Under the pieces are notes generated by a model that was given only the letters and a program-made list of their open reading frames with translations, searched no databases and was not told where the DNA came from. The translations under genes and the position numbers were made by a program. DNA of 64,000 nt, from assembly GCA_021810565.1 (NCBI GenBank), contig JAJZIM010000002.1, forward strand, positions 18,429-82,428. The letters are read 5' to 3'. This document shows, one piece after another, positions 12,968 through 62,563 of this stretch. Position 1 is the first letter of the stretch, and every line of letters starts with the position of its first letter. Origin of the DNA: Bacillota bacterium. GTDB lineage: Bacteria; Bacillota; Sulfobacillia; JAJZIM01.

Positions 12968-12978
12968 GCCCGGCTTCC

Positions 12979-15637: not shown

Positions 15638-15805
15638 ACCTCCTGGCCCACACCGCTTCTCGCCCGCCCGCCACGGTTGCCGATACCACGATATGCCGGG
15701 CCACCGCTTATGTTACAGCGGCTGATTTTTCTCTTTCGGGAAACGACTGATCCCGTCATGCGACGGTTGCAGCCGGCCTCTCCCGCAGGCCGGACGCGGA
15801 GTGGG

Positions 15806-34665: not shown

Positions 34666-34987
34666 GCCGCACCAGCAGCCACAAAGCCACCACCGCGGCG
34701 GCTATCCCGGCCAGGTTGACGTGCAGCCAGATGGACAGCCCCAGGATGTACAGGTTGAGCCCCGTCAGAGAGAAGCCGTAGGGCTTGGCCAGGAAGGGGG
34801 CATAGGGGGCCGCAAGGCTACCGATCACCGATCCGGCCAGGAGCGCCACGAACAGACTCAGGACGAACAGCCACCCGTTGATCGACCTTCCGCGCACCGC
34901 TTCGCCTCCCACACCCGGGCAATGCCTAGGGGAATTCGTCCCGAGCGGGTCAAAATCCTGTCTACCTGCCTCTGACGCGCTCCCCAC
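34658..34987 (-). CDS. small hydrophobic membrane protein (possibly DUF4321-like; start uncertain)
   Basis: 2-3 TM segments (...WLFVLSLFVALLAGSVIGSLAAPY...LNLYILGLSIWLHVNLAGIAAAVVALWLLV). The track ORF start overlaps the tnpB 3' end by 130 nt. An internal GTG (~34849) would give a 63-aa protein. Confidence 0.4.
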   Translation of the reverse strand: MGSASEAGRQDFDPLGTNSPRHCPGVGGEAVRGRSINGWLFVLSLFVALLAGSVIGSLAAPYAPFLAKPYGFSLTGLNLYILGLSIWLHVNLAGIAAAVVALWLLVRRA

Positions 34988-36672
34988 GGCTGAAGCCGGG
35001 GGGTTCTACCGGAGGACCCCATTACGCCTTTTCCGGGCTCTCCTGGCCCCGTGGTCCCATGCCTCAGGCCGGCAAGGCCAGGGGCACGGACCTCAGCATC
35101 ATGGCTTCCACGATTTCCGACCGTGGCTCCGGCTTTCGTCGCGACGGGCTCAGACCCGAAGCCCAGGAGTCGAGCCTCCTTGAGCCCCAGGGAGGCAGGA
35201 GTCCAGTTCCCGCCGACTCGCCCGTTGGTTTCGGCCTGCAGCCGCTCGAACGCCGCACGCAGGAGGTCGTCCCCACCCGGCCAGGCCTCTTGTGCTCGGC
35301 CCGCGTTCAGCAGCCATATCTGCCGGTCGCATGACAGCGCCATGGGTTCCACGAAGGACGCCAGGTAGGCGCTGTACAGGTCGCGCTGGGCCACCGCGCC
35401 GCAGGCCGGGCAGCGGTGCCAGCGAAGGGACCGGGGCTTTTTCTCCCGGTGTCCGCAGTGGCAAACCTGGGACAGGGCGGTGGTCCGCGTGGGGAAGGCT
35501 CGCACGGCTCCGCCGGCACTCTCAGCCTTGCGGGAAAGCCGGGCGAAGAACATCCCCGGAGCGCGGAAGCCCACCGATTTGCCGAAACGCTTCTGCCAGC
35601 CCCTAATCGACACGTCCTCGTGGAGGAAGACATCCCCGAGGGCGAGCACCCGGTTAACCAGACGCCCCTGCAATGATTTGCGGTGTGCCGCCAGGGTGCG
35701 ATGGGCATCTCCCAAAGCCGCCTGCGTCTTCTTCATCCCCAGGGACGTGCGCCATTTCTTCGGTCCCTTGCGGATGGTGCCGTTGGGGTGGTAGTTCCCG
35801 GGGTTGTTGGCCCGGCGCTGCCGGTCCAGCTTGCGGGAGAGCCGCCGGATCTCCAGGTGCTTCGGCATCAGTTCCCCGCAGAAGGGAGTGACGAGCACAT
35901 GGTCCTCTCCCACGGCGGCCAGGGCGGGGGGCCCCGCGTCCAGGCCCACGGTCCCCTTCCCCAGGGGATATTTGACCGAGCCGTCCGGGTTCAGCTTACG
36001 GTACGGCTCGCCCTCTAGGACCAGTTGGGCAGAAAAACGGTTGCGCATCCCCATCTTCCGGCGCACGATACGCACGTACTTCACCCGGCAGGACAGCCCA
36101 TGATTGACCACGGGATCATTCCGATCGATGACGGCGTCAAGCGCCAACCCCCTCCACTCCACGGCGCCGTCGCGCCAACGGATGCCGGCGTCGTTGCTCT
36201 TGCCCTCCACGGTGTCCATTTGATTCTTCCCCTTGAACCTGACGCGCCGGGCCAGGCCGAGGGTTACCCGCTGCTGGGCACCGAAGGCCCGGGTGGCCAG
36301 CTTCTGGGCGACGTGGACGTCCAGGTGTTCTCCCAGCCAACTGCGGCGTACCTGCACGGCGTATCTCTGCAGGCCGTAGTCGGAAAAGCCGTGGGCCTTT
36401 TTCGCCCGGGAAAATGCCTTGGCCCTTTCCTTTCGTTCCTCGTCGGTGCTGTGCGGCATGGCCGTAGCGGCCCGGTAGGCTTTGGACTGACGAACCAGTT
36501 CCCAGCGACGGCAGGCCTCGCCCAGGCAGGCATTGTACAACTGCCGCGCCGCCTCCAGGCCGGCGTTGAGCACCCGCTCGTCCACCGGGCTGGTCCGGAG
36601 CGGGACCTCGCACACGAAGGATGGAGTTTCAGGCCGACTTTTGGTCTTCAACGTACTGCTTGATGAAGGCAA
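34858..36672 (-). CDS. tnpB: TnpB-like RuvC nuclease (IS200/IS605 OrfB, IS1341-type; solo, no tnpA seen)
   Basis: TTG start. N-terminus ...FVCEVPLRTSPVDERVLNAGLEAARQLYNACLGEA... is the typical OrfB N-terminal region. The zinc ribbon plus RuvC-III is ...CHCGHREKKPRSLRWHRCPACGAVAQRDLYSAYLA... 604 aa, i.e. ~170 aa longer than usual at the C-terminus (Gly/Arg-rich). Confidence 0.75.
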   Translation of the reverse strand: MPSSSSTLKTKSRPETPSFVCEVPLRTSPVDERVLNAGLEAARQLYNACLGEACRRWELVRQSKAYRAATAMPHSTDEERKERAKAFSRAKKAHGFSDYGLQRYAVQVRRSWLGEHLDVHVAQKLATRAFGAQQRVTLGLARRVRFKGKNQMDTVEGKSNDAGIRWRDGAVEWRGLALDAVIDRNDPVVNHGLSCRVKYVRIVRRKMGMRNRFSAQLVLEGEPYRKLNPDGSVKYPLGKGTVGLDAGPPALAAVGEDHVLVTPFCGELMPKHLEIRRLSRKLDRQRRANNPGNYHPNGTIRKGPKKWRTSLGMKKTQAALGDAHRTLAAHRKSLQGRLVNRVLALGDVFLHEDVSIRGWQKRFGKSVGFRAPGMFFARLSRKAESAGGAVRAFPTRTTALSQVCHCGHREKKPRSLRWHRCPACGAVAQRDLYSAYLASFVEPMALSCDRQIWLLNAGRAQEAWPGGDDLLRAAFERLQAETNGRVGGNWTPASLGLKEARLLGFGSEPVATKAGATVGNRGSHDAEVRAPGLAGLRHGTTGPGEPGKGVMGSSGRTPRLQPWGARQRQVDRILTRSGRIPLGIARVWEAKRCAEGRSTGGCSS

Positions 36673-36947
36673 GCGGCGCCCCCCCCACTAAAGACGTTGC
36701 CGTTGGGCTTGAATCGGCGAACCATGGACAAAGCATACCACGCACCCCCGTATGATAGCAACCCGCAGGTGGCTGTTCCCCAAGGCTGAAGCCCGGGGCT
36801 TGCGCCGCCCTGCTCTTTGGTCATATAGTGCCGCGGATGAATTTTTCCTGCCAGCGTCCCCGGGCCGTCCAGCTTCCGGCAACGCGCCGGCCGGCTCCGG
36901 GAGCTTTCCCGAACCGGCCGGATAGGGGTCAGGAAAACCGTTCCACT

Positions 36948-39524
36948 TTAGGCCGCCTGCAGCACGATCTCCCCGCCCTGGGCGTCCACCCGCACCTTCT
37001 GTCCCTCCTGGAACTCCCCCTTCAGCAGGGCCATGGCCAGCCGGTCCTGGATCTCCCGCTGGATGATCCGCTTCAAAGGCCGCGCCCCGAAAGCCTGATC
37101 GTAGCCGTGCTCCGCCAGCCAGTCCTTGGCCTGATCCGTAAGCTCCAGGGCGATCCCCCGCTCTCCCAGGCGTCGCTCCAGCAGGGCCGCTTGGATGTCG
37201 ATGATCTGCCGCAGGTCGTCTTGGGTGAGGGCCCTAAAGATCACGATCTCGTCGATGCGGTTCAGGAACTCCGGACGGAAGTGGCCGTGCAGCACTTCCA
37301 GCACCCGCTGACGGGTCACCTCGGCGGTGCCGGCACCGAAAAGCTCGCTGCCCAGGTTGGAGGTCATGATCACCACGGTGTTGCGGAAATCCACCGTGCG
37401 CCCCTGCCCGTCGGTCAGGCGTCCGTCGTCCAAGAGCTGCAGCAGGACGTTGAAGACCTCCGGATGGGCCTTCTCGATCTCGTCCAGGAGCACCACCGAG
37501 TAGGGATGGCGGCGCACCGCCTCGGTTAGCTGGCCGCCCTCCTCGTAGCCGACATATCCGGGAGGCGCTCCGATTAGGCGGGCCACCGCGTGGCGCTCCA
37601 TGTACTCGCTCATGTCCAGGCGCACCATGGCCCGCTCGTCGTCGAAGAGAAATTCCGCCAGGGCCCGGGCCAGTTCCGTCTTGCCCACCCCGGTGGGTCC
37701 CAGGAAGATGAAGGACCCGATGGGCCGGTTGGGATCGGAAAGCCCGGTACGGGCCCGCCGCACCGCGTTGGCCACGGCCTCCACGGCCTGGTCCTGGCCC
37801 ACCACCCGCCGGTGCAGCCGTTCCTCCATCCGCACCAGCTTGTCCATCTCTCCCTCCATCAGGCGCGCCACGGGGATGCCGGTCCACTTGGCCACCACCT
37901 GGGCGATGTCCTCGTCGTCCACCTCCTCCTTGATCATGCGCCCCTTGGCCTGCCGCTCCTCCAAGCGCGCCTGCTCCGCGGCCAGCTCCTTGGTCAGGGC
38001 GGGCAGCTCGCCGTAGCGCAGCTGCGCAGCCCGCTCCAAGTCGCCCTGGCGCTCGACCCGCTGCTCCTCGTTGCGGATGTCCTCGATGCGCGCCTTCAAG
38101 GTTTGCAGCCTGACGACCACCGCCTTCTCCGCCTCCCAGCGGGACTTGAGGCCGGCCGCGCGCTCCCGCAGTTCGGACAGTTCCCGCTCCAGCTTGGCCA
38201 GCCGCTCCCGGGCCGCCCCCTCCGACTCCTTGGACAGGGCCTGCCGCTCTATCTCCAGCTGCCGGATGCGCCGCTCCACCTCGTCCACCTCCGCCGGCAC
38301 GGAGTCGATCTCGATCCGCAGCCGGGACGCCGCCTCGTCCACCAGGTCGATGGCCTTGTCCGGCAGGAAGCGGTCGGCGATGTAGCGGTGGGAGAGGACG
38401 GCGGCCGCCACCAGGGCCGAGTCCTTGATGCGCACCCCGTGGTGCACCTCGTATCGCTCTTTTAGTCCCCGCAGGATGGCGATGGTGTCCTCCACGTTGG
38501 GCTCGCCCACGAAGATGGGCTGGAAGCGCCGCTCCAAGGCTGCGTCCTTCTCCACATGCTTGCGGTACTCGTCCAGGGTGGTGGCCCCGATGGCCCGCAA
38601 CTCGCCCCGGGCCAGGGCCGGCTTCATCAGGTTGGCCGCATCCACGGCACCCTCGGCGGCTCCGGCTCCCACCAGGGTGTGCAGTTCGTCGATGAACAGG
38701 ACGATCTTGCCCTCCGCCGCCTGGATCTCCTTCAGCACGGCCTTCAGCCGGTCCTCGAACTCCCCCCGGTACTTGGACCCCGCGATGAGCGCCCCCACGT
38801 CCAGGGCCACCACCCGCTTGTCCTTCAGGCCCTCCGGCACATCCCCGGACACGATGCGCTGGGCCAGCCCTTCGGCGATGGCCGTCTTGCCCACCCCGGG
38901 CTCGCCGATGAGCACCGGGTTGTTCTTGGTGCGCCGGGACAGCACCTGGATCACCCGCCGGATCTCCTCGTCCCGACCGATGACCGGGTCCAGCTTGCCG
39001 CGCTTGGCCTGCGCCGTCAGGTCGCGGCTGTAACGCTCCAAGGCTTGGTACTTGTCCTCGGGGTTCTCGTCGGTCACCCGGTGGCTGCCCCGCACTTCCG
39101 CCAAGGCGCGATAGATGTTCTCGTGGTCCACCCCCGCCTCGCGCAGGATGCGCCGCACCTCCCCGCCGTCCTCGGAGGCCAGGGCCAAGAGCAGGTGCTC
39201 CGTGCTGATGTACTCGTCCCGCAGGGCCTCCGCCTCCCGGCCAGCCCGCTCCAGGACCTTGGCCAGGCGCGGCGAGAGGTACTGGCTCGCCCCGGCCCCC
39301 TGGACCCGCGGCAATCTGCCCACCGCCGCTTCGGCCTGCTCCCGCAACCGTTGCGGCTTGGCCTCCAGCCGCTCCAGCACGGGGGCGACCACCCCCTCCG
39401 GCTGCTCGATCAGGCTCAGCAGCAGGTGCTCCGGCGTGATCTCCTGTTGGCCGTGCTCCGCCGCCCGGCGCTGGGCGTCTTGAAGCGCCTCTTGGGACTT
39501 CACGGTCAAGCGATCCGTGCTCAC
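36948..39524 (-). CDS. clpB: ATP-dependent chaperone ClpB
   Basis: 858 aa: [38 protein letters not shown]..., two AAA+ modules (GEPGVGKT..., GPTGVGKT...). 4-nt overlap with the upstream J-protein gene. Confidence 0.95.
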
Positions 39525-40405
39525 GACCCGCCACCTCCCGACCGCAATTGGGCCAGCTCCCGGTACAGATCCCGCTCCCGCTCGCTAAGATTGCGGGGCA
39601 CGCTGATGCGCACCCGGACCAGTTGGTCCCCCGATCCGCCCGCCAGGCGCGGCATCCCCAGCCCCCGCAACCGGAACACCCTGCCGTCCTGGGTCTCCGC
39701 CGGCACCTTCATGGCCACGTTGCCCTGCATGCTGGGCACCTGTATCTCGCCGCCCAGCACCGCCGTGGTCACCGGCACCTGGATCTCCGTCTCCAGGTCA
39801 TCCCCCCTCCGGTGGAACCGGTGGTGCGGCTGGATGTGGACGCGCAGCAATAGGTCCCCCATGTGGCCGCCCAGGCCCCGCTGCCCCTGGCCGGCCAGGC
39901 GCAGCTTGGTGCCGTCCCGCACGCCGGGTGGCACCTTCACGTCCACCAGGCGGCTGCGATCACCCTCCTCCAGCCGAAACTGGCGCGTGGTGCCGCGGTA
40001 AGCGTCCTCCAGGCTGATCTCCAGGGTGGCCTCCACGTCGCGGCCGGCCCCGCCCCAGGCCGCAGCCCCCGTCCGGCCCTCAAACCCGGCGCCCTGGCCG
40101 CCGAAAAAGGCCCGAAAGAAGTCCGAGAAGCCGTCGTCCGCCCCGCCCCAGGTGAAATGTGCCTGGCCGAAGCCCGGCTCGCGGCTCTTCTGATCCCAAT
40201 CGCGGCCCAGAAGGTCGTACTTCTGGCGCTTCTCCGGATCCCGCAGCACCTCGTAGGCTTCGTTGATCTCCTTGAACTTCTCCTCGCTGCCGCGGTGGGT
40301 GTCCGGATGGTGCTCCCGCGCCAAGCGGCGAAAGGCCCGCTTGATGTCTTCCTGGGAGGCGTCGCGTGCCACCCCCAGGAGCTTGTAGTAGTCCTTGAAT
40401 TCCAT
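39521..40405 (-). CDS. DnaJ-class J-domain co-chaperone lacking the CxxCxGxG zinc-finger (CbpA-like)
   Basis: [37 protein letters not shown]... (J domain, HPD), 294 aa, with C-terminal client-binding domains but no Cys-rich repeats. Confidence 0.85.
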
Positions 40406-40493
40406 CGTCTTAGCGCGGCCGTTGGCGCTGGGCCGCCTTCCCTCCTCTCCCCCGGGCCGCCGGCCCCCACTGTTCCCTTGACGAGGAAAGGTC

Positions 40494-41021
40494 CTACGCC
40501 GTCCCGATCGGCGGCGCCGGGCGCACCACCCGCACCCGCGCCGGGCGCAAGAGCTCCCCCTCGTAGGTGTAGCCCTTCTGCAGCTCCTCGCTCACCCGCT
40601 CCGCGTCGGCGTCCAGGCTCTCCCACACCTCCACCGCCTCGTGGCGCGCCGGGTCGAACTCCTGCCCCACGGTCTCCAAGGAGGCCACCCCTTCCGCGGC
40701 CAAAAGCTCCTTCAGCTGCCGGAAGATGATCTCCACTCCCGTCCGCAGAGTCTGAACGTCGCCCCCGGCATTAAGCGCCCGCTCGAAGTTGTCCACAACG
40801 CCCAGGATGCCCAGCAACAGGCGCCGCTTGCCGCGGCGGATGTTTTGCGCCAGATCGCGCTCCACCCGCCGGCGGTAGTTCTCAAAGTCCGCCTGCACCA
40901 GCAGGCTCTGAGCACGGTACTCCTCCGCCTGGCGCCGCCAGCCGTCCGCCTCCTCGCGGAGGGCCTCCAGCCGCTGTTCCTCCCGCTCCTCGGGCAACTC
41001 CCCGTCACCTTTCTCGCTCAC
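40494..41021 (-). CDS. grpE: nucleotide exchange factor GrpE
   Basis: Track ORF 40494..41120 trimmed to a GTG start (V34) with RBS GGGAGGAGG 6 nt upstream: (M)SEKGDGELPEEREEQRLEALREEADGWRRQAEEYRAQSLLVQADFENYRRR... The untrimmed start would overlap hsp20. Confidence 0.85.
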   Translation of the reverse strand: MSEKGDGELPEEREEQRLEALREEADGWRRQAEEYRAQSLLVQADFENYRRRVERDLAQNIRRGKRRLLLGILGVVDNFERALNAGGDVQTLRTGVEIIFRQLKELLAAEGVASLETVGQEFDPARHEAVEVWESLDADAERVSEELQKGYTYEGELLRPARVRVVRPAPPIGTA

Positions 41022-41109
41022 CTTGAACCTCCTCCCGCTCTCAAGATCTAAAGCCGGGGCGAGAGCCCCGCCCCCGCCCCGGCACCCGCTGGGAAAGTGT
41101 TCACGAGCT

Positions 41110-41556
41110 TCAGCTGGCACTTACCTGGATCTTCTTGGGGCGGACCTCCTCGGCCTTGGGCAACTCCAAGTGCAGCACGCCGTCCTTGTAGGTGGCCTTG
41201 ACCGCATCCGCCTTGACCGGGTTGGAGAGGGTGAAGGCTCGGCAGAAGCTGCCCTGCCGGATCTCCCGGCGCAGGTAGTTCTCGCCCTTCTCCTCCTTCT
41301 CCTCCTTGCGCTGTGCCTTGATCACCAACTGGTCGCCCACCAGCTGCACCTCGATGTCCTCCTGCCTCATGCCCGGCAACTCGGCATCGATCACCATGGT
41401 GTCTTCCGTCTCCTGGACGTTCACCGGGAACTCCCAGTCCCCCGCCAGCAGCTCGTCGTCGTGCCAGCGGCGCGGCAGCACCTGTCCGAAAATGCGTCCT
41501 ACGGACCGTTGAAAGTCCTCCATCTCCCGGAAGGGATCCCACCTAACCAGCGCCAT
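41110..41556 (-). CDS. Hsp20/alpha-crystallin family small heat-shock protein
   Basis: MALVRWDPFREMEDF...ELPGMRQEDIEVQLVGDQLVIKAQRK...GSFCRAFTLSNPV... RBS GAAGGAGGTG upstream. Confidence 0.9.
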   Translation of the reverse strand: MALVRWDPFREMEDFQRSVGRIFGQVLPRRWHDDELLAGDWEFPVNVQETEDTMVIDAELPGMRQEDIEVQLVGDQLVIKAQRKEEKEEKGENYLRREIRQGSFCRAFTLSNPVKADAVKATYKDGVLHLELPKAEEVRPKKIQVSAS

Positions 41557-41614
41557 CCCGGGGCACCTCCTTCATCGATCGATCATATCCGGCTATTTCC
41601 CAGCGGGAAACCCC

Positions 41615-43513
41615 TTACTTCTCGTCGGTGGTCTTGAACTCCGCGTCCACCACCGGCTCCTCCCCCGGCGGGGGCGTTGCGGCCTCGGGACCGCCCGCGC
41701 CCTCGGCCCCCTTCTGCTTGTACAGCTCCTCGGCCAGGTGGTGGGAGGCCTGCTGCAACTCCTCGGTCGCCGCCTTGATCGAGTCCGTGTCGCCGCCGGA
41801 GAGCGCCTCCTTCAGCTTGCCCAAGGCGGCCTCCACCTTGGCCCGCTCCTCGGCCGGGAAGCGGTCTCCCACCTCCCGCAGGTTCTTCTCGGTGTTGTAT
41901 GCCAGGCTGTCCGCCTGGTTGCGCGCCTCGACCTCCTCCCGCTTGCGGGCGTCCTCGGCGGCGTGTCCCTCGGCCTCCCTCACCAGCCGCTCCACGTCGT
42001 CGCGGCTCATCTGGGTGGAGGCGGTGATGGTGATCCGCTGCTCCCGCCCCGTGCCGCGGTCCTTCGCCGAGACGTTGACGATGCCGTTGGCATCGATGTC
42101 GAAGGTGACCTCTATCTGGGGCACCCCCCGGGGAGCCGAGGGTATGCCCTCCAAATGGAAGCGCCCCAGCGTGCGGTTGTCCGTCGCCATCTGCCGCTCC
42201 CCCTGGAGCACGTGGATCTCCACGCTGGTCTGGCCGTCGCCGGCGGTGGTGAACACCTCGCTCTTGCGGGTGGGGATGGTGGTGTTGCGGTCGATCAGGC
42301 GGGTCAGCACGCCGCCCAGGGTCTCGATGCCCAGGGAGAGCGGGGTGACATCCAGGAGCACCACGTCCTTGAGCTCTCCCGCCAGCACGCCGCCCTGGAT
42401 GCCCGCACCCACGGCCACCACCTCGTCGGGGTTCACGCCCCGATGGGGCTCCTTGCCCGTGAGCTTGCGCACCAGCTCCTGGATCACGGGCATCCGGGTG
42501 GAGCCGCCCACCAGGATCACCTCGTCGATATCCTTCTCGCTAAGTTTGGCGTCGGCCAGGGCCTGCTTGAAGGGGCCCACGGTGCGCTCGGTTAGGTCCG
42601 CCGTCAGCTCCTCAAACTTGGCGCGGGTCAGCTTGGACTCCAGGTGCTTGGGGCCGGCCTGGTCGGCGGTGATGAAGGGCAGGCTGATGGTGGTCTCCGG
42701 CACCGTGGAAAGTTCCGTCTTGGCCTTCTCCGCAGCTTCGATCAGCCGCTGCAGCGCCTGCCGGTCCTTGCGCAGATCGATGCCCTGCTCCCTCAGGAAC
42801 TCATCGGCCAGGTAGTTGACCACCCGCTGATCGTAGTCGTCGCCCCCCAGGTGGGTATCCCCCGAGGTGGCCTTGACCTCGAAGACCCCCTCGCCCACGT
42901 CCAGAACGGACACGTCGAAGGTGCCGCCGCCCAGGTCCCAGACCAGGATGGTCTCGTTCTTCTTCTTGTCCAGCCCGTAGGCCAGGGAGGCCGCCGTGGG
43001 CTCGTTGATGATCCGCAGCACCTCCAGGCCGGCGATCTTGCCCGCGTCCTTGGTGGCCTGGCGCTGAGCGTCGTTGAAATAGGCCGGGACGGTGATGACC
43101 GCCTGGGTCACCGGCTCGCCCAGATACTTCTCCGCATCCTCCTTCAGCTTGCGCAACACCATGGCCGAGATCTCCTCCGGGGTGAGGGCCTTGCCTCCCG
43201 CCGGCAGGTTGATCCGCACGCCCCCGCCGGGACCCTCCCGCACCTCGTAGGGAACCAGCTTGCGCTCTTGGCTAACCTCCTCGAAGCGCCGTCCGATGAA
43301 GCGCTTCGCCGAGTACACCGTGTTCTCGGGGTTGAGCACCGCCTGCCGGCGGGCCAACTGCCCCACCAGACGCTCCCCGTCCTTACGGAAACCCACCACC
43401 GAGGGGGTCAGCCGACTGCCCTCGGCGTTGACGATCACCGTCGGCTTGCCGCCCTCCAGGACGGCGATGACCGAGTTGGTGGTCCCCAGATCGATCCCCA
43501 CTACCTTGCCCAC
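41615..43513 (-). CDS. dnaK: molecular chaperone DnaK (Hsp70)
   Basis: Track ORF trimmed to a GTG start (V33; RBS AGGAGGG + 6 nt): (M)[31 protein letters not shown]... (compare [14 protein letters not shown]). Confidence 0.95.
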
Positions 43514-43524
43514 ATCGATCCCTC

Positions 43525-43791
43525 CTACTCGCTGCCCTGTTCGCGCTCCAGGGTCAGGATGATCTTTATCCCCGCCAGGTTCACCTTTTGGTCTTTCAGC
43601 AACACGCAAATCCGGTGCAAGATGATGAGCTCGTTCTGAGAGTAAAGGCGCGTGTTGCTCGACGTCCGGGCGGGGTAGACCAAGCCCTCCCGCTCCAAGG
43701 AGCGCAAGAGTTGGGCCGACACCCCGAGGATCCGCGCGGCCACGCCGATGGTGTAGACCGGCTCGTCTTCCCCATGCATTGCTCCTCTCAT
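43525..43791 (-). CDS. hspR: MerR-family heat-shock repressor HspR
   Basis: ...[70 protein letters not shown]... (HTH_MerR). Start is M12 or M16 of track ORF 43525..43824, since M1 sits on the -10. It is the first gene of the dnaK operon. Confidence 0.8.
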
Positions 43792-43819
43792 CTTTCCTCC
43801 CACCTCGACTCCCTTGCAG

Positions 43820-43885
43820 GTCATATGCTAGAACATTTGCGGTGTGCTTGTCAAGTGCCTTGATGCGATTCCTTCAAGGTATTTA
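43820..43885 (-). promoter_or_regulatory. putative sigmaA promoter of the hspR-dnaK operon plus HAIR-like inverted repeat
   Basis: Minus strand: TTGACA (plus 43849-43854) - 18 nt - TAGCAT (plus 43825-43830). IR CCTTGA-N10-TCAAGG at 43858-43879 (compare HAIR CTTGAGT-N7-ACTCAAG = CTTGA-N11-TCAAG). A palindrome CTTGTCAAG overlaps the -35. Confidence 0.45.
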
Positions 43886-43951
43886 CTCAGGAAGACGCGG
43901 GCTTAGTTTTACCGCCGGCAGGGCAGGGATATTCCCGCGGCGCGGTCCGCG

Positions 43952-43980
43952 TTGACATCCCCGTCCCGGCGCGCTATACT
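43952..43980 (+). promoter_or_regulatory. sigmaA-type promoter for tRNA-Ser
   Basis: TTGACA (43952-43957) - 17 nt - TATACT (43975-43980), 12 nt before the tRNA 5' end. Confidence 0.6.
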
Positions 43981-43992
43981 CGAGAGTGCTTC

Positions 43993-44085
43993 GGAGGGGT
44001 ACCCAAGCGGCCGAAGGGGCGGGTTTGCTAAACCTGTAGTAGGGTTTTGGCTCTAGCGAGGGTTCGAATCCCTCCCCCTCCGCCA
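43993..44085 (+). tRNA. tRNA-Ser (anticodon GCT), class II with long variable arm, encoded CCA
   Basis: GGAGGGGTACCCAAGCGGCCGAAGGGGCGGGTTTGCTAAACC...GGGTTCGAATCCCTCCCCCTCCGCCA. Acceptor stem GGAGGGG/CCCCTCC, anticodon loop TTGCTAA, T-arm GGTTCGAATCC. Confidence 0.9.
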
Positions 44086-44102
44086 TCCAAATCTGCGGAA
44101 GC

Positions 44103-44130
44103 CGACCAGCCGGTCGGTTTCTTTCATTGA
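44103..44130 (+). terminator. rho-independent terminator after tRNA-Ser
   Basis: CCGACCAGCCGGTCGG hairpin followed by TTTCTTTC. Confidence 0.6.
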
Positions 44131-44388
44131 GGATACGGTCCTCCTCGCCGCGCTCCCCGCGGCAGGGCTCGCCCAAAGCCCGCCAGCCGAGTCGTCGTTG
44201 TCCCTCTCGCGGGTGCTCGGCGGAAAGCTTCCCCGCCCGCAGGTTCCGCGGCCGTCAGCCGGCACCCGCCGGTGGACGGGAGGAGCGCCCCCTCGGCCTT
44301 TGAGCCGCCGCCGCAACCGCTCCCGGATTCCCGCCGGGCGCCCACCTCGGAGCATAAGCAGTCCCCCCGGTGATGCCGAGGGGAGCCG

Positions 44389-44880
44389 TCATCGCTCCGT
44401 TTGCGCCAGGGCCTCGTCCAGGAAGCGCCCAAAATCCGCCAACTCGGTTCGTACCAACGTCATCGTGTCATTCACCGTCAGCACCAGTCGTTCCATGTGC
44501 TCCCAGTTCAGGGGGCGTCGGTATATCCTGTACACCACGTGGCGGAAACTGCGCAACTCGTCAAGTTTGTCGTAGGTGGCCTCGGAGATGACCGCTGGCC
44601 GTTCCGGAGTCTTGGACGCGGCCAGCCGGAGCAAGCCCGTGTGCCAACTGGGACCCTGGGGCTTATACTCATCGAACACGCTCACGATGTGCTCCAACAC
44701 GTCCTCTACCGCCGTGTAGAAGCGCGCTATGTTGAGAGCCACCGCCAAGACCAGTTCTATCTGTGGATCGGCCGAAGCCACCCGTGCGCTCATCTCTTCG
44801 ATGGCCTGGTGCAGTTCCCCGGCAACTCTCAGGATGAAGTCCATTTCGGCTAGGAGTTCACGCAACTGTCCCTTGCTCAA
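44389..44880 (-). CDS. HEPN-type (HepT/NTase-substrate-binding-like) putative toxin, partner of the upstream MNT
   Basis: Track ORF 44389..45237 trimmed to a TTG start whose TTG overlaps the MNT TGA (cTTTGAgc). 163 aa, all-helical: (M)SKGQLRELLAEMDFILRVAGELHQAIEEM...DELRSFRHVVYRIY... The RxxxH motif is not a perfect Rx4-6H. Confidence 0.5.
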   Translation of the reverse strand: MSKGQLRELLAEMDFILRVAGELHQAIEEMSARVASADPQIELVLAVALNIARFYTAVEDVLEHIVSVFDEYKPQGPSWHTGLLRLAASKTPERPAVISEATYDKLDELRSFRHVVYRIYRRPLNWEHMERLVLTVNDTMTLVRTELADFGRFLDEALAQTER

Positions 44881-56004: not shown

Positions 56005-58380
56005 TCAGTGGCTGATGGGCAGCGGACCCTCCAGGCGCTCCTCGGCGGCCGCCGGGATGGCCATGGTCAGCTCGGGCACCAGGGCTCCCCCCAGCACCTG
56101 GTCCATATGCTCCACCAGCACGAAGTGCATCCGCCGGCGCACGTTGGGCGGGATCTCCTCCAGGTCCTTTCGGTTGTCCGCCGGAATGATCATGGTGGTG
56201 ATGCCCGCCCGGTGGGCCGCCAGCACCTTCTCCTTCAACCCGCCGATGGGGAGCACCCGGCCCCGCAGGGTGATCTCCCCGGTCATGGCCACGTCGTGGC
56301 GTACCGGTCGTCCCGACAGGGCCGACACCAGGGCCGTGGCCATGGTGATGCCGGCCGAGGGGCCCTCCTTGGGCGTCGCCCCTTCGGGCACGTGCACGTG
56401 GATGTCGTAATGCTCGTGAAAGTCCTCGGGGATGCCCAGGGTCGCCGCCCGGGACCGGATGTAGCTGAAGCCGGCCTGAGCCGATTCCCGCATGACCTCC
56501 CCCAGCTTGCCGGTCAGGAGCAGGTTCCCCTTGCCCTTCATCACGGAGACCTCGATGGGCATCACGTCGCCCCCCATCTCCGTCCAGTACACCGCCGTGG
56601 CCACACCCACCTCGCTGGCCGTCTCGGCGTAGCCGGTGCGGTAGCGCGGCGCCCCCAGGTAGCGGTGCAGGTTCTGACGGGTGATGCGCACGGGGGGCTT
56701 CTCCCCCTGAACGATGGCCCGGGCCGCCTTGCGGCAAAGGGCCGCCAGCTCCCGCTCCAGGTTGCGCACCCCCGCCTCCCGGGTGTACTCCCCGATCAGG
56801 GTGCGGATGGTGTTGTCGGACACCTCCAGGTCGTGCTCCCCCAGACCGTGCTGGCCCTTCTCCTTGGGCAGGAGGTAGCGCCGGGCGATGCCGATCTTCT
56901 CCTCCTCGGTGTAGCCGGAGATGTTGATGACCTCCATGCGGTCCAGGAGGGGGCGCGGGATGTTGTAGGCGGAGTTGGCGGTGGTGATGAACATGACCTT
57001 GGACAGGTCGTAGGGCAGCTCGATGTAGTGGTCGCTGAAGTTCTGGTTCTGCTCGGGATCCAGGACCTCCAGCAGCGCCGACGAGGGGTCGCCGCGGAAA
57101 TCGGAGGAGAGCTTGTCGACCTCATCCAGCAGGAACACCGGGTTGCGGGAGGCGGCCTGCCGCATGCCCTGGATGATCCGTCCCGGCAGGGCCCCCACGT
57201 AGGTGCGCCGGTGCCCGCGGATCTCCGCCTCGTCCCGCACGCCGCCCAGGGAGATGCGCGCAAAGTGGCGCCCCAGGGCGCGGGCGATGGAGCGGCCCAG
57301 GGAGGTCTTGCCGACCCCCGGCGGCCCCACCAGGCACAGGATGGGACCCTTCATGTTCTTGACCAGCTTGCGGATGGCCAGATACTCCAGGATCCGCTCC
57401 TTGACTTTGGACAGGCCGTAATGGTCCTCCTCCAGAATGCGTTCCGCCTGCGTCAGATCCAACTGGTCCTGAGTCTCCACCTCCCAGGGCAGGGCCAGGA
57501 TCCAATCCAGGTAATTGCGCACCACCACCGCCTCGGCGCTCATGGGCGGCATCTTCTCCAACCGCTCCAGCTCCCGCACGGCCTTCTCCCGGGCTTCCTG
57601 CGGCAGGGCCAGGGACTCGATGCGCGAGCGCAACTCCTCGGTCTCGCTGCCCTTCTCGTCGCGCTCCCCCAGTTCCCGCTGGATGGCCTTGATCTGCTCC
57701 CGCAGGTAGTACTCCCGCTGGGTGCGCTCCATCTGCTTGCGCACCCGCACGTTGATGCGCCGTTCCATCTCCTGCAGTTCCACCTGCCGGTTCAGGATCT
57801 CCTGGACCTTGTCCAGCCGCTCGCGCACCGAGAAGGCCTCCAGCACCGCCTGCTTCTCCTCCGTCCGCACGTCCAGCTGGCTGGTGATGGTGTCCGCCAG
57901 CCGGCCGGGAGACTCCACGCTGAAGTTGGCCAGACCCTCCTGAGCCATCTTCTTGGATGCCTTCATGTACTGCTCGTAGTTGTGCACCAGGCTTCTGGCC
58001 GAGGCCTCCGTCTCCTTGGAGTGGTCCCGCTCCTCCCGCACCTCCCGAATGCGCACGCTGAAATGGGGCTCGGTCTCCAGGTACTCCAGGATCTCCACCC
58101 GGCTGACGCCCTCCACCACCACCTTGAAGGTGCCGCCGGGCAGCTTCACCATCTGCTTGATCTCCGCCAGGGTGCCCACGTCGTAGATATCCTCGGGTCG
58201 AGGGGTGTCGGTGTGCACCTCCCGCTGACTGGCGAACACCAGCAGCCGGTCCCGATCCGCCACCGACTCCAAGGCGCTGATGGACCGCTGCCGGCCCACT
58301 TCCAGGGGCACCACCAGATGGGGAAACGCGAACACCCCGCGCAGGGGTAGCAAAGGATACACGTCCCGCCTGCCGCTCAT
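56005..58380 (-). CDS. lon: ATP-dependent protease Lon (LonA)
   Basis: 791 aa. LON N-domain, AAA+ (GPPGVGKTS), S16 protease (...[19 protein letters not shown]...). Confidence 0.95.
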
Positions 58381-58420
58381 TGCAGATCACCTCGCTAGTT
58401 CCAACGCTCTCACCTCCTCC

Positions 58421-58429
58421 ATTTTAACA
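58421..58429 (-). promoter_or_regulatory. extended -10 (TGTTAAAAT) candidate promoter for lon
   Basis: Minus strand ...tatgTGtTAAAATggaggaggtg... ~40 nt upstream of the lon ATG. The -35 is weak. Confidence 0.4.
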
Positions 58430-58506
58430 TAGACGGGCCGGAAAAGCTCCTGGCAACCATCCCTCGTTCGATGGCAAAAGCTGCCCCCGGGGGCGAAGCT
58501 ATGGCC

Positions 58507-60183
58507 TCAATGGAAACTCACCGGGGCCGCACTGGCCGGCAGCGGCGCGTTAGCGCCCGGCACCGCCGCCGGACGCAGCAAGGCCGCCTCCAGCACCTCC
58601 TGGAAGGTGCCCACCGGGATCACCTGCATCCCGTCGCCGCGCGACGACTCCGGCCTGTTTTCTCGGGGGATCAGCACCCGCTGGGCCCCGGCCCGCCGCG
58701 CCGCCTCCAACTTGGCCGGGATCCCCCCTACCGCCTTCACCAGGCCCTGCACCGACAGCTCCCCCGTGAGGGCCACCCGGTTGTCGACCGCCTGGCCGAC
58801 GACGGCCGAGTAGACCCCCAGCGCCATGGCGACCCCGGCCGACGGACCGTCCACCGGCGTGCCGCCGGGGAAGTTGATGTGTATGTGGTAATCCGTGGGA
58901 TCCCGCGGCAGGTAGCGGCGCAGCACCGTGAGCACGTTCTCCACGGCGGTTCTGGCCGTGCCGCGCCGCTTCAGCCGGCGGCCCGGCGCACCGGTCTCCT
59001 CCTCGTCCACCACCCCCGTCACGGCCAAGGTACCGCACCCCGGCGTCGCCTCCCCGGCGACCACCTCCAGCTCCAGCAGCGCCCCCAAGTTCGGCCCGTA
59101 CACCGCCAGGGCATTCACCCGCCCCACCTGAGGGCGCTCCGGCACCCGCCGCTCCGGCCGCGGCTGGTACTGGCCGTGGTTGACCACCCACTCCAGCGCC
59201 GCCGCTCCCACCCGTCCCCGAGCGGCGGTCTCCTCCAGGCCCGCCGCCAACTGCACGATGTTCACGGCCTCCCGCCCGTTTACGGCATAGCGCCGCACCA
59301 CCTCCAGGGCCGCCGGCTCCAGGGGGCAGGCCACCTTCCGCCCGGCCGCTTCCGCGATGCGGCCCACCTCCTCCGGCGCAAGCTGGCGGAAGAACACCTC
59401 CACGCAGCGGGAGCGCAAGGCGCTCGGCAGCTCGGAGGGCATGCGGGTGGTGGCGCCCACCATGCGAAAATCCGCCGGCAGCCCCCGGTCGAACAGGTCC
59501 TTGATGTGCCCCGGCACGGCGGGATCCTCGGCGTTGTAGTAGGCGCTCTCCAAGAAAACCTTGCGGTCCTCCAGCACCTTCAGGAGCTTGTTCATCTGGA
59601 TGGGATGCAGCTCCCCGATCTCGTCGATGAACAGGACCCCCCCGTGGGCCCGGGTCACGGCCCCCGGCTTGGGCTGGGGCACGCCCGCCATGCCCAGCGG
59701 CCCCGCCCCCTGGTATATGGGGTCGTGCACCGAGCCCAGCAGGGGATCGGCGATGCCCCGCTCGTCGAAGCGCGCCGTGGTGGCGTCGATCTCCACGAAC
59801 CTGGCGGCTTCCTTGAAGGGAGAGCGCGGGTTGCGCTTGGCCTCCTCCAGGATGAGCCGGGCCGCGGCCGTCTTGCCCACCCCCGGCGGGCCATACACCA
59901 GGACGTGCTGCGGATTGGGACCGCAAAGGGCCGCCCGCAGGGCCCGGATCCCCTCCTCCTGCCCCACCACCTCGGCCAGGGAAGCCGGCCGCGTCTTCTC
60001 CGCCAGGGGCTCAGTCAAGGAGATCTCCCGCAGCCGGCGCCATTTCTCCCGCTCCTTGCGCGACTCCCGCTCCACCGCCGTCCGGGTGCCCTGCTGGCCG
60101 CGCAGCAGGTTCCAGAAGTACAGGCCGACCACCACGGCGAAGAACAACTGCACGAAGGTGACCAACTCGCCCGCCCAGTTCAC
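58507..60183 (-). CDS. lonB: sporulation-type membrane-anchored Lon-like protease LonB
   Basis: Track ORF trimmed to a GTG start (V81; [14 protein letters not shown] + 7 nt): (M)NWAGELVTFVQLFFAVVVGLYFWNLL... (compare B. subtilis LonB MSWTGIALFIQLFFGIIIGLYFWNLL). AAA+ [15 protein letters not shown]16 DGPSAGVAMAL. Confidence 0.9.
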   Translation of the reverse strand: MNWAGELVTFVQLFFAVVVGLYFWNLLRGQQGTRTAVERESRKEREKWRRLREISLTEPLAEKTRPASLAEVVGQEEGIRALRAALCGPNPQHVLVYGPPGVGKTAAARLILEEAKRNPRSPFKEAARFVEIDATTARFDERGIADPLLGSVHDPIYQGAGPLGMAGVPQPKPGAVTRAHGGVLFIDEIGELHPIQMNKLLKVLEDRKVFLESAYYNAEDPAVPGHIKDLFDRGLPADFRMVGATTRMPSELPSALRSRCVEVFFRQLAPEEVGRIAEAAGRKVACPLEPAALEVVRRYAVNGREAVNIVQLAAGLEETAARGRVGAAALEWVVNHGQYQPRPERRVPERPQVGRVNALAVYGPNLGALLELEVVAGEATPGCGTLAVTGVVDEEETGAPGRRLKRRGTARTAVENVLTVLRRYLPRDPTDYHIHINFPGGTPVDGPSAGVAMALGVYSAVVGQAVDNRVALTGELSVQGLVKAVGGIPAKLEAARRAGAQRVLIPRENRPESSRGDGMQVIPVGTFQEVLEAALLRPAAVPGANAPLPASAAPVSFH

Positions 60184-60215
60184 GCCAAGCCCTCCCTCCC
60201 GTAATTTGCGCCGTT

Positions 60216-60245
60216 TAGTATGTCCCGGCCCGCAAGGGAAAATGC
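60216..60245 (-). promoter_or_regulatory. candidate forespore (sigmaF/sigmaG-type) promoter of lonB
   Basis: Minus strand GCATT - 18 nt - CATACTA (compare sigmaG GHATR-N18-CATXHTA), ~35 nt upstream of the lonB GTG. Confidence 0.35.
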
Positions 60246-60440
60246 CGCATAGGCCTTGACAGGACGGGCCGGGCAAGGCGATAATGGAGCGTGGGAATAG
60301 GCGGAACCTTGTATCATGCACGAAAAATCTGTCCCGCCTTAGGCGGGCAACCCGTCGCGGCCCGGCCGCGGGAAGGAGGGGCGATGCGTCCCGGCCGAGG
60401 GACCTCGAGCGGGAAAAAAGCAAGTGAGGTGGCTTATTCC

Positions 60441-61112
60441 ATGGGGTGGAGGAGATGGACCCTGGTCCTGTCCGGCTCGATCCTGCTGACCCTGCTCCTG
60501 GGCGGCCTGGTTTTCGCCGCCAAGGCGCCGCCGCAGTTGACGGCGGCCATCGGCGCGGTCGGCGCGGCCAAGGCCGTGGTGCCCCTGATGCTCACCGGTG
60601 CCTTCTTCATCATGGCCAACGCCATGCTGCACCTGAACCCCGAGCGCACCAAAGTCTCGGTGGCCTCCGTGGGCACGGTGGGCATCGTCGCCGGTCTCAT
60701 CTTTCTAGCCAACCTGTTCGTGATGATGCTGACCAACTTCACCGGCGTGGCCTCGCCCTCGAACCTCGGTCCCCTGACCAACTTCGTCGGCGGTCTGGCC
60801 ACCATGTACGGCTTCTTCTTCCTGGTGGTGGGCCTGAACCAGCTGCTGGGCCTCAAGCACAACGTGCTGGGCCCCATCGCCATCCTGATCGCCTTCCTGA
60901 CCCTGGGCTACGCCTGGATGTTCTTCGCCGCCGGTTGGTACTACCACATGACCATAGCCCTGGTGTGGTTCGTGGCCATGCTCTTCGCCGGCCTTTTTCA
61001 GGTGGGCAAGCTCTCCGAGAAGACCCTGGGCTACTGGCTGCTGTTCACCGCGGTGTGGACCTTCGCCATCCCCGGCTTCATCTGGGCCTCGTCCATGCCG
61101 GGCGCGTTCTAG
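60441..61112 (+). CDS. AmiS/UreI-family-like membrane channel protein
   Basis: Track ORF 60291.. trimmed to M51 (RBS GTGAGGTGG upstream): MGWRRWTLVLSGSILL..., 6 TM. Motifs NFVGGLATMY and FAIPGFIWAS resemble UreI NFFVGGLS / AWIPAWLLF. Confidence 0.5.
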   Translation: MGWRRWTLVLSGSILLTLLLGGLVFAAKAPPQLTAAIGAVGAAKAVVPLMLTGAFFIMANAMLHLNPERTKVSVASVGTVGIVAGLIFLANLFVMMLTNFTGVASPSNLGPLTNFVGGLATMYGFFFLVVGLNQLLGLKHNVLGPIAILIAFLTLGYAWMFFAAGWYYHMTIALVWFVAMLFAGLFQVGKLSEKTLGYWLLFTAVWTFAIPGFIWASSMPGAF

Positions 61113-61133
61113 CCTGAGAGGAGGAGAGTAGAT

Positions 61134-61307
61134 ATGTGGGCAGTGCCCTTCCCCGTGAGCATCGGCATGTGGCTGGTGGTCATCGGGTGGTTGGTGGCGA
61201 TGTGGGCCATGTTCGGCCAACTGGGGCGGGAGAATTTCGACGCCAGCAACGAGACCAGCCTGGCCAAACACTCCGCCAGCCAAGGCAAAGGCTTGGGCGC
61301 CTGAGCG
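61134..61307 (+). CDS. unannotated 57-aa small membrane peptide
   Basis: ATG at 61134 preceded by GAGAGGAGGAGAG (5-nt spacer): MWAVPFPVSIGMWLVVIGWLVAMWAMFGQLGRENFDASNETSLAKHSASQGKGLGA*. Missing from the ORF track (<60 aa). The track's overlapping 61136 GTG frame is low-complexity. Confidence 0.5.
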
Positions 61308-61416
61308 CGGAAAGATAGCCCCTGAACCGATCGAGGGCCCCCGGTGTCAACCGGGGGCCCTTCCTGATCTGGTGACCGGGGCACGGGGGCAGGTCTGGGC
61401 AGGGAGGTCGATCCGG

Positions 61417-61896
61417 GTGATCACGCCCGAACTCTTGGAGCGCTGGGGAACCAGCCGCGGGGAACTTTCCTGGTTCGCCGCCCGTTTCGGGACGGCCACC
61501 GCTCTTTTGCCCCTGGCGGAGGCTTTGGCGTCCGAGGGCCGCTTCCATTGGCTGCGTCGGATATACCGGGGGTACCTGGACCAGTTGGAACCCGGACCGG
61601 CGGCGGACCTGGCGGTATTCGCCGCCTCGCTGGTGGTGGAAGACTCCTCCGGCGACCTGGAGCACGTCTCCCCCGCCGATCCCGGATACCACACCGCCGG
61701 CGCGGCCCTTTTCGCCCTGCAGGCCGCGGCTAGAGCCGAGACGGGGCAGGAGGGGCAGGTGGTGACCTGGTCCTTGACCGCCGCCGAGTTCGCCGCCGAC
61801 GCCGTGGCGGCCCAAGCCGACATGCGCGAGGTGGCGGCCTTCTGGCTGATGCTCTTCCGGCGCCTAAGCTTCCTCAGGCCGGCCCTGCCGCCTTGA
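61417..61896 (+). CDS. hypothetical protein
   Basis: Track ORF 61372..61896. Likelier start is GTG at ~61417 (RBS GGGAGG upstream): (M)ITPELLERWGTSRGELSWFAARFG... No family recognised. Confidence 0.4.
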   Translation: MITPELLERWGTSRGELSWFAARFGTATALLPLAEALASEGRFHWLRRIYRGYLDQLEPGPAADLAVFAASLVVEDSSGDLEHVSPADPGYHTAGAALFALQAAARAETGQEGQVVTWSLTAAEFAADAVAAQADMREVAAFWLMLFRRLSFLRPALPP

Positions 61897-62533
61897 CCCC
61901 CGTGACCACCGCCCAGCGGCCCACCGATCGCACCGCCACCTCCTGAAAGCCCGCCGCCGTGGCCTGCTCCCGCAGCTGGGCGGCACCGTACGGACCGGCC
62001 CCGTGGGCACCCCGCAGGGGCGGGGCCAGCCGGGTCAGGGCGTTCGTCTGGAAGTCGCTGACCAAGACCCTGCCGCCCGGGCGCAGCAGCCGGTGGGCCT
62101 CCGCCCACAACCCCCCGGGGTCGGACAGCTCGTGCAGCACATTGTTGGAGTAGACCAGGTCCGCCGCGCCGGAGGGAAGTCCGGTCTTGGTGACTGAGGA
62201 GCGCGTCAGCGTCAGGCGCTCGGCAAGGCCCCGCCGCCTAGCCCGCGCCGCCGCCTGGCGCAGCATCTCGGAAGACAGGTCAACCCCCAGCACCCGGCCC
62301 TGCGGCAAGCGCGCCGCCACCCGCAGGGCAAAGTATCCCGAACCCACCCCCAAGTCCACCGCCGTGACCGCCCCCGGACAGGCGGCCACCTCCCGCTCCA
62401 GGCAGGGCCAGGGATCCCCCAGGAGCCAGCGCTCCAAGCCGCGACGCAGGGGGCCCGCCAGGAACCGCCCCCCCAGCTTACCTTTCAAGCCCTCCCAGGT
62501 GGAACGCTCCACGCCCATCCCTCCCCAGGGCAA
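61874..62533 (-). CDS. class I SAM-dependent methyltransferase
   Basis: ...VTAVDLGVGSGYFALRVAARLPQGRVLGVDLSSEMLRQA...LVYSNNVLHELSDP...GGRVLVSD (motifs I, post-I, II, III). Confidence 0.8.
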   Translation of the reverse strand: MPWGGMGVERSTWEGLKGKLGGRFLAGPLRRGLERWLLGDPWPCLEREVAACPGAVTAVDLGVGSGYFALRVAARLPQGRVLGVDLSSEMLRQAAARARRRGLAERLTLTRSSVTKTGLPSGAADLVYSNNVLHELSDPGGLWAEAHRLLRPGGRVLVSDFQTNALTRLAPPLRGAHGAGPYGAAQLREQATAAGFQEVAVRSVGRWAVVTGVKAAGPA

Positions 62534-62563
62534 GGCCCCGGGGCTGCCCCCGGGGCCGACCGG

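Follow-up and report, generated by a model that had tools for sequence, protein, structure and literature searches.

Considering that heat-shock control in Firmicutes is, in textbook form, exerted by HrcA with its CIRCE operator and by CtsR, which regulator governs the chaperone genes of a Bacillota locus in which a MerR-type gene precedes dnaK? The locus lies in 64,000 nucleotides (nt) of a Bacillota bacterium of the class Sulfobacillia (assembly GCA_021810565.1, contig JAJZIM010000002.1, positions 18,429 to 82,428), and this whole stretch is called the window below. Between positions 36948 and 43885, open reading frames (ORFs), Pfam and NCBIfam place six genes on the minus strand in the order hspR-like, dnaK, hsp20, grpE, J-protein gene and clpB, and their boundaries match the public gene calls on identical contigs; the order proposed by the first-pass annotation of this DNA is thereby borne out (Table 1). 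By analogy with characterised systems, the locus would be an HspR-type chaperone cluster under negative autoregulation, in an uncultured, high-GC, thermophilic Bacillota lineage, a reading to which we assign a probability of about 0.6. The regulator gene is separated from dnaK by 11 nt (12 had been given), the J-protein gene and clpB share the 4-nt overlap described before, and the GTG restart of grpE does sit behind a good ribosome-binding site, GGAGG, yielding a protein of 175 amino acids (aa). The gap between hsp20 and grpE measures 88 nt. An alternative 99-aa ORF exists for the regulator; its start would fall within the -10 box of the promoter.

The regulator scored best in NCBIfam against the HspR equivalog NF047375 (76.2 bits), followed by FtsR (32), CarH (30) and TnrA (27), and it matched Pfam MerR_1 with 54 bits (cut-off 21.6). 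HspR was also the top NCBIfam family for all 25 relatives that were aligned with it, with a best E-value of 1e-41. Two properties count against full membership: the score falls short of 105, the curated cut-off for HspR, with a match that takes in only positions 1-75 of the 92 in the profile, and the C-terminal third of the HspR profile is missing from the protein. In the alignment, the window protein and its 90%-identical sister terminate right after the conserved NLAGIKIIL helix, and most other aligned relatives continue for 20-40 residues, frequently with an acidic tail. In NCBI, the protein and its relatives go by the bare name 'MerR family transcriptional regulator', and the automatic annotation of JGI calls some of the relatives 'MerR family transcriptional regulator/heat shock protein HspR'. 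The earlier identification as HspR thus stands as regards the best family match and the position at the head of chaperone genes, but not as regards the cut-off and the C-terminal tail. We treat the regulator as a divergent, HspR-like, minimal MerR winged-helix protein and not as a certified HspR member.

The AlphaFold2 model of the regulator (predicted local distance difference test, pLDDT, 88) is a winged helix with helices at residues 15-22, 26-34, 52-66 and 72-86 plus a beta wing. The C-terminal helix has only 15 residues, and there is no effector domain. Its top Foldseek matches were GlnR, TnrA, NmlR, CarH and CbpM, the closest being DNA-bound structures of GlnR and TnrA (template modelling score 0.83-0.85); the nearest solved protein by sequence was likewise GlnR/TnrA of Bacillus subtilis (4r4e, E 1.7e-10). 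No HspR structure was found in the PDB. An identity as GlnR or TnrA was considered and ruled out by the family scores (TnrA 27 against HspR 76 bits) together with the chaperone context.

The usual Firmicute regulators were sought in the window and in the related loci, which are numbered from L001. A tblastn search with an HrcA query (Pfam HrcA 241.8 bits) found no hrcA in the window or in L001-L086, and no HrcA Pfam domain was present among the called genes of L001-L006 or L089-L092. CIRCE (TTAGCACTC-N9-GAGTGCTAA) did not occur within 3 mismatches in the window, nor within 4 in the related loci scanned, and the window contains no CtsR box. Scans for HAIR and CIRCE across 86 related loci, actinobacterial ones included, gave no convincing site near hspR or dnaK. 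The host is a Bacillota genome: the window has B. subtilis-like synteny and sporulation genes (valS-folC, maf-radC-mreBCD-minCDE, tig-clpP-clpX-lonB-lonA, SipL).

The breadth of the hspR-first layout was investigated with an HspR alignment, which was scanned against one genome per GTDB species; the 80 best loci were retained, and synteny was read by tblastn and ORF-level blastp. Of the 58 Bacillota-type species genomes L007-L064, about 50 have dnaK as the gene immediately after an hspR-like gene; some contigs in this set end too early to judge, one genome is labelled Ignavibacteriales, and nearly all are metagenome-assembled genomes (MAGs). By label, the set takes in Candidatus Fermentithermobacillaceae, a Symbiobacterium MAG and numerous lineages from anaerobic digesters, and the adjacency recurs in three further loci (L090-L092). 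The full order, with a J-protein devoid of a zinc finger, was found in at least seven of the L007-L064 genomes (L007, L011, L012, L013, L014, L017 and L026). Shorter versions are hspR-dnaK-dnaJ-clpB in Sulfobacillus harzensis and Ca. Hydrogenisulfobacillus filiaventi, and hspR-dnaK-grpE-dnaJ-clpB in L092; S. harzensis is an isolate (PMC8489842). Conversely, the actinobacterial loci of the same scan read dnaK-grpE-dnaJ-hspR(-clpB), with hspR late rather than first. The layout had been described as Actinobacteria/Deinococcus-like, a comparison that we abandon: hspR comes last in the actinobacterial loci, while hspR first is usual in some 50 Bacillota genomes. As judged from gene order, it is a lineage trait of deep-branching Bacillota and not an isolated oddity. 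Two variants were also seen in the scan: L081, L083 and L084 (Dormibacteraeota-type) carry two hspR-like genes about 600-650 bp apart, and the Caldisericota MAGs L079 and L080 have hspR-hsp20-dnaJ-clpB, again with a zinc-finger-less dnaJ, but without dnaK.

The closest relatives bear on the name of the organism. The window Hsp20 is identical to a protein on several MAG contigs named 'Thermaerobacter sp.' (e.g., GCA_028063925.1, contig JAPTXS010000050.1). All six genes recur on those contigs, with proteins 99-100% identical; Thermaerobacter itself is classed by NCBI under Bacillota, Clostridia. Beyond these contigs, DnaK identity drops to 80% for the next-best match, and cultured Thermaerobacter is absent from the top 80 HspR loci and the top 120 DnaK matches, which makes the genus label doubtful and leaves no close cultured relative for comparison. 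In one sister contig (L002:12033-14609), clpB is called as two ORFs of 233 and 621 aa, by a frameshift or an assembly error. Recent horizontal transfer of the cluster was also considered and is unsupported: its GC content (65-71%) falls within the 64-73% found across the window, which is about 69% GC overall.

How would such a regulator act on its own promoter? The promoter TTGACA-N18-TAGCAT, reported earlier upstream of hspR, is indeed there, with ten of the twelve consensus positions matched. A consensus scan of both strands yielded two sigma-70-like sites in 8 kb, against 0.5 expected, and this one is the sole promoter-like site on the minus strand in 36400-44400. Its spacer of 18 nt is one above the optimum, and the regulator belongs to the MerR family, so that one might picture a MerR-style activator remodelling a promoter with a sub-optimal spacer, rather than a repressor. 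We regard this as very improbable: classical MerR activators bind within a spacer of 19-20 nt, but the repeat of the window lies upstream of -35; the hexamers are already near consensus; the regulator has no domain for an effector; and all characterised HspR proteins repress. Divergent from hspR lies a tRNA-Ser(GCU) gene (43993-44085, plus strand), whose own promoter TTGACA-17-TATACT (43952-43980) is about 100 bp away. An Rfam search returned only tRNA, and no known RNA thermometer or leader.

The candidate operator is a 22-bp inverted repeat, CCTTGA-N10-TCAAGG, which can alternatively be read as 8-N6-8 with one mismatch and whose predicted span is about -61 to -40. The 64 kb contain a single element of the form CTTGA-N(8-12)-TCAAG, where 0.07 would be expected. 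The sister species (L087/L088; HspR 90% identical) retains the core CTTGAAGGAATCGCATCAAG and the -35 hexamer without change, and differs in the outermost C of the repeat, the sequence just upstream and the -35/-10 spacer. Beside the repeat there is a 9-bp palindrome, CTTGACAAG. The first-pass annotation had both elements overlapping the promoter; both are present and the palindrome does overlap the -35 hexamer, but the repeat only abuts it.

Several observations weigh against this repeat as an HspR operator, and thereby against our reading. It adjoins the -35 hexamer from upstream with a 3-nt gap and no overlap. Generic perfect inverted repeats with arms of at least 6 bp arise by chance in 10-20% of random 60-nt stretches, and because they are so common, the weight of the 22-bp repeat rests on its specific arms, its position and its conservation in the sister species. 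In the next-nearest relatives, whose DnaK is 79-80% identical to that of the window, the right arm is degenerate (TCATG in L023, ATAAA in L092). No second copy was found in the 64 kb plus about 5 kb of flank, and none precedes lonA, clpX, tig or clpP, which leaves no support at the level of a regulon. The more distant hspR-first relatives have an unrelated motif, ATAnnTTTCTTA, instead. Finally, the fit to HAIR is poor. The HAIR consensus is CTTGAGT-N7-ACTCAAG (PMC7464140); the promoter region comes no closer to it than 8 matching positions out of 14, and a scan of the window that allowed 3 mismatches found no site. The repeat itself reads CTTGAAG-N6-CATCAAG (7-N6-7 against 7-N7-7), with 10 nt instead of 11 between CTTGA and TCAAG. 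The resemblance to HAIR noted earlier is accordingly confined to the shared CTTGA/TCAAG core, and the repeat is no HAIR element. Our proposal of the 22-bp palindrome itself as operator is tentative, at a little less than an even chance.

The operator may also be differently built, from a TTGA(A/G) element and a block overlapping -35, ACTTGACAAG, that is, from two CTTGA-type half-sites 23 bp apart, the palindrome then being an accident of this lineage. We think this unlikely, though a serious contender. When the four lineages are aligned, the invariant positions are confined to the left-arm TTGA and to ACTTGACAAG at -35; L023 and L092 have lost the right arm, and generic inverted repeats are, as said, frequent by chance. 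The HspR proteins of Helicobacter pylori and Campylobacter jejuni, moreover, cover 70-80 bp with poorly conserved flanking determinants (PMC6032397, PMC7464140, PMC6102357). On the other hand, the perfect CTTGA-N10-TCAAG core is kept in the sister species, its arms are the core of HAIR, and the conserved TTGACA may merely be the -35 hexamer.

It could further be supposed that the repeat is due to chance altogether, and that control of the cluster comes from genes beyond the window, for HrcA/CIRCE or an alternative sigma factor, or from intrinsic thermolability of the small repressor acting on another site. The missing second copy, the frequency of generic repeats and the other motifs used by relatives would fit this. 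We hold it to be improbable, given that the specific element has a probability of about 0.07 in 64 kb and yet stands 3 nt from the -35 hexamer, and given the negative CIRCE scans of the window and the related loci. A one-mismatch copy of the N10 repeat (CTTGACCGTGAAGTCCCAAG, minus strand, 39491-39510) lies within the first codons of clpB; it is most likely a chance occurrence in conserved coding sequence. The tig-clpP-clpX-methyltransferase-...-lonB-lonA region (56005-63835, and L094) has no CtsR box, CIRCE or CTTGA repeat ahead of any gene.

The promoters of relatives contain other candidate sites. In L007-L036, a 17-bp motif, GATATAAcTTTcTTATATC (ATATA-N7-TATAT, with the core mentioned above), is located about 20-100 nt upstream of hspR, for example at L012:9897-9913. 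This pseudo-palindrome is almost exclusive to the hspR promoter within each 20-kb locus and absent from the window, and in L020, L025 and L027 a second copy occupies the -35/-10 spacer. We regard it as a candidate operator for the HspR-like proteins of the Bacillota clade, unrelated to HAIR. Two further arrangements were observed. In L038-L063 (Fermentithermobacillaceae-type), a long inverted repeat, TAAGAAAnnTAT-N~10-ATAnnTTTCTTA, lies in the 5' leader after the -10 box and just before the ribosome-binding site of hspR; it could be a DNA operator or a thermometer-like RNA stem masking that site. The hspR leaders of L023 (9950-9975) and L092 (7505-7530) have in common the inverted repeat ATTAGC-N6-GCTAAT; its arms are identical to the outermost bases of CIRCE but lie much closer together.

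Two stem-loops bear on how the six genes are transcribed. The first-pass annotation had taken the cluster as one minus-strand unit, which agrees with the common strand and the single promoter-like site; a single transcript is unproven, however, and is made uncertain by a conserved strong hairpin that follows hsp20. The region of this hairpin, in the hsp20-grpE gap, has a folding energy of -44.7 kcal/mol (z -2.4), and an equally strong hairpin was found at the same place in all 10 relatives with hsp20 that were examined. No clean U tract follows the stem. The hairpin is, by its position, possibly an attenuator, a partial terminator or a stabiliser of mRNA 3' ends inside the cluster, and hspR-dnaK-hsp20 and grpE-dnaJ-clpB may be expressed at differing levels. 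In a stronger version, the cluster would not be one unit: the hairpin would end most transcripts, and grpE-dnaJ-clpB would depend on low read-through or on an unrecognised promoter. The 14-bp GC stem followed by UUUAGAUCUU and its counterparts in relatives lend this some weight, but we find it the less credible option, because no minus-strand promoter-like site lies in the gaps, the operator-like motif of the relatives does not recur before grpE, a clean U tract is wanting, and relatives keep both the overlap of dnaJ with clpB and the gene order on one strand. The second stem-loop, after clpB, is likely the end of the unit. It lies outside a 1,848-bp insertion (34972-36819) and also occurs in sister contigs that lack the insertion, and it is thus native to the locus. 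The insertion begins 128 nt past the clpB stop and bears a TnpB-like ORF (34858-36672, minus strand; Pfam Cas12f1-like_TNB); since it is found in sister contigs L001, L003, L004 and L006 and missing from L002 and L005, it is a polymorphic mobile element.

The preferred reading, negative autoregulation by an HspR-like protein, would then work as follows. By analogy with Streptomyces and Mycobacterium, the regulator, as a dimer or oligomer, would bind the CTTGA-type repeats next to and across the -35 hexamer, thereby blocking RNA polymerase. The same transcript would supply free DnaK, which would aid this binding, and the promoter would fire when unfolded proteins titrate DnaK or when heat weakens the repressor. 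The hairpin after hsp20 would probably make the hspR-dnaK-hsp20 part more abundant than the grpE-dnaJ-clpB part reached by read-through. The steps of repression and modulation are drawn from the Streptomyces, Mycobacterium, Helicobacter and Campylobacter systems, in which HspR represses, DnaK serves as co-repressor, and clpB and lon belong to HspR regulons (PMC6032397, PMC7464140, PMC6102357).

The J-protein of the cluster had been described as CbpA-like and without a zinc finger. There is not one cysteine in its 294 aa and therefore no CxxCxGxG motif, so the second half of that description holds; the first does not, as other families match better. Residues 4-286 match the 'DnaJ 2' structures 6psi (E 1e-61) and 4j80 (E 1e-57), entries of 280 aa without a zinc finger that are presumably Thermus thermophilus DnaJ, and the CbpA-like entry 3lz8 follows at E 1.6e-44. 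Among NCBIfam profiles, the short-DnaJ family PRK14299 (267 bits, cut-off 392) exceeds CbpA NF007618 (173 bits, cut-off 403), both scores being below their cut-offs. No cbpM partner is present at the locus, where the gene after the J-protein gene is clpB. By these matches the protein is a zinc-finger-less class-B J-protein of the short 'DnaJ 2' type, not E. coli CbpA.

Table 1. Genes and regulatory features of the chaperone cluster, with positions in the window.
Feature	Position	Strand	Remarks
22-bp inverted repeat CCTTGAAG-GAATCG-CATCAAGG, candidate operator	43858-43879		core CTTGA-N10-TCAAG; unique in window
9-bp palindrome CTTGACAAG	43847-43855		overlaps -35 hexamer; within block ACTTGACAAG
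sigma-70-type promoter TTGACA-N18-TAGCAT	43854->43825	minus	10/12 consensus matches; directly upstream of hspR-like gene
hspR-like MerR regulator gene	43525-43791	minus	88 aa; first in cluster
dnaK	41615-43513	minus	632 aa; NCBIfam NF001413, 1010.3 bits, above equivalog cut-off (648)
hsp20 / alpha-crystallin small heat-shock protein	41110-41556	minus	148 aa; Pfam, NCBIfam
14-bp GC-rich stem-loop, then UUUAGAUCUU	41053-41083	minus	in hsp20-grpE gap, just after hsp20
grpE	40494-41021	minus	175 aa; GTG start preceded by GGAGG
class-B J-protein without zinc finger	39521-40405	minus	294 aa; Pfam DnaJ + DnaJ_C
clpB	36948-39524	minus	858 aa; TIGR03346, 1361.7 bits, above equivalog cut-off (1232.1)
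strong stem-loop	36887-36921	minus	27 nt after clpB stop; -58.4 kcal/mol, z -3.2; no U tract

The chromosomal neighbourhood of the operon is not conserved in relatives, except for a HepT gene in the sister species. In the window, a HepT-like ORF (PF20797; 44389-45278, minus strand) overlaps an upstream 133-aa ORF without a Pfam match, between DoxX/folC and the tRNA gene; the two are probably an MNT/HepT toxin-antitoxin pair, and HepT adjoins hspR in L087 too. Elsewhere in the window, three ORFs with high GC at third codon positions had no Pfam match (11006-13705, 899 aa; 1169-2173, 334 aa; 60434-60883, 149 aa). The 899-aa ORF lies inside a large glycosyltransferase and polysaccharide cluster (about 5-28 kb), which is adjoined by two SipL/SPOCS sporulation-type proteins (14030-16861).

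What does the locus add to the view of heat-shock control in Bacillota? The regulator type and the logic of the operon are already known; the locus differs in its gene order, in a truncated regulator that resembles GlnR, in a site other than HAIR and in how widely the layout occurs among Bacillota. On present evidence, the locus is a refinement at the level of annotation, with no new mechanism. Among the papers searched, none links HspR or hrcA with Thermaerobacter, Symbiobacterium, Limnochorda or Sulfobacillus. In contrast to the textbook regulators, about 50 related genomes, largely from uncultured and mostly thermophilic Bacillota, would place an HspR-like repressor ahead of dnaK, in clusters that often also hold hsp20, a zinc-finger-less DnaJ and clpB. 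If the repressor binds non-HAIR sites, the family would illustrate on a small scale how operators turn over while regulator and operon stay paired, and the minimal MerR protein of 88 aa, whose structure is predicted with confidence, would help in learning how binding to DNA is gated by chaperones or temperature. A wider hypothesis, which we consider doubtful as a whole, joins three statements: the deep-branching thermophilic Bacillota related to Thermaerobacter, Sulfobacillus, Symbiobacterium and Fermentithermobacillaceae would possess a distinct, GlnR-like, minimal HspR sub-family that is always encoded first and replaces HrcA as regulator of the dnaK operon; its operators may have diverged into at least three unrelated types (ATATA-N7-TATAT, the leader repeat TAAGAAA...TTTCTTA, and CTTGA-N10-TCAAG); and the window lineage may have lost the C-terminal tail. 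If true, the loss of the tail would imply sensing unlike the DnaK-tail model of actinobacterial HspR, such as intrinsic thermolability.

Compared with the hrcA-grpE-dnaK-dnaJ operons of Bacillus and Clostridium, with which the window shares a Bacillota host and B. subtilis-like neighbour genes, the locus has neither hrcA nor CIRCE, a different gene order, a DnaJ without the zinc finger, and clpB within the cluster. B. subtilis GlnR and TnrA resemble the regulator in their build, a winged helix of about 85 residues with a short C-terminal helix and no long coiled coil, and their consensus TGTNA-N7-TNACA has the same 5-N7-5 geometry as the 17-bp motif of the relatives, but the window regulator stands among chaperone genes and not nitrogen genes. 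In the cbpA-hspR operons of H. pylori and C. jejuni, HspR shares its transcript with a J-protein that lacks a zinc finger, and its binding sites are at the core promoter or upstream of it, as may also be the case in the window; there, dnaK and grpE are in a separate hrcA-led operon under dual control by HspR and HrcA, whereas in the window dnaK comes directly after hspR and neither hrcA nor CIRCE is present. The HspR/HAIR systems of Streptomyces coelicolor and Mycobacterium tuberculosis (dnaK-grpE-dnaJ-hspR, with clpB and lon in the regulon) have in common with the window a MerR-family regulator encoded together with dnaK, presumably autoregulation and the control of clpB by that regulator, and the CTTGA/TCAAG core that forms the arms of HAIR. 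They differ in that the window gene is first and not last and encodes 88 aa with no C-terminal tail and a score below the equivalog cut-off, that hsp20 and clpB are physically part of the cluster, and that the repeat is 7-N6-7 and matches HAIR at 8 of 14 positions. The dnaK operon of T. thermophilus, which we take to be dnaK-grpE-dnaJ-dafA-clpB, differs from the window in its dafA gene, for which the 4-nt overlap of dnaJ and clpB leaves no place here, in the hsp20 that follows dnaK in the window, and in the regulator gene that leads the cluster. With its dnaK...grpE-dnaJ-clpB order and its short zinc-finger-less DnaJ, it is nevertheless the closest known arrangement for the distal part of the cluster.

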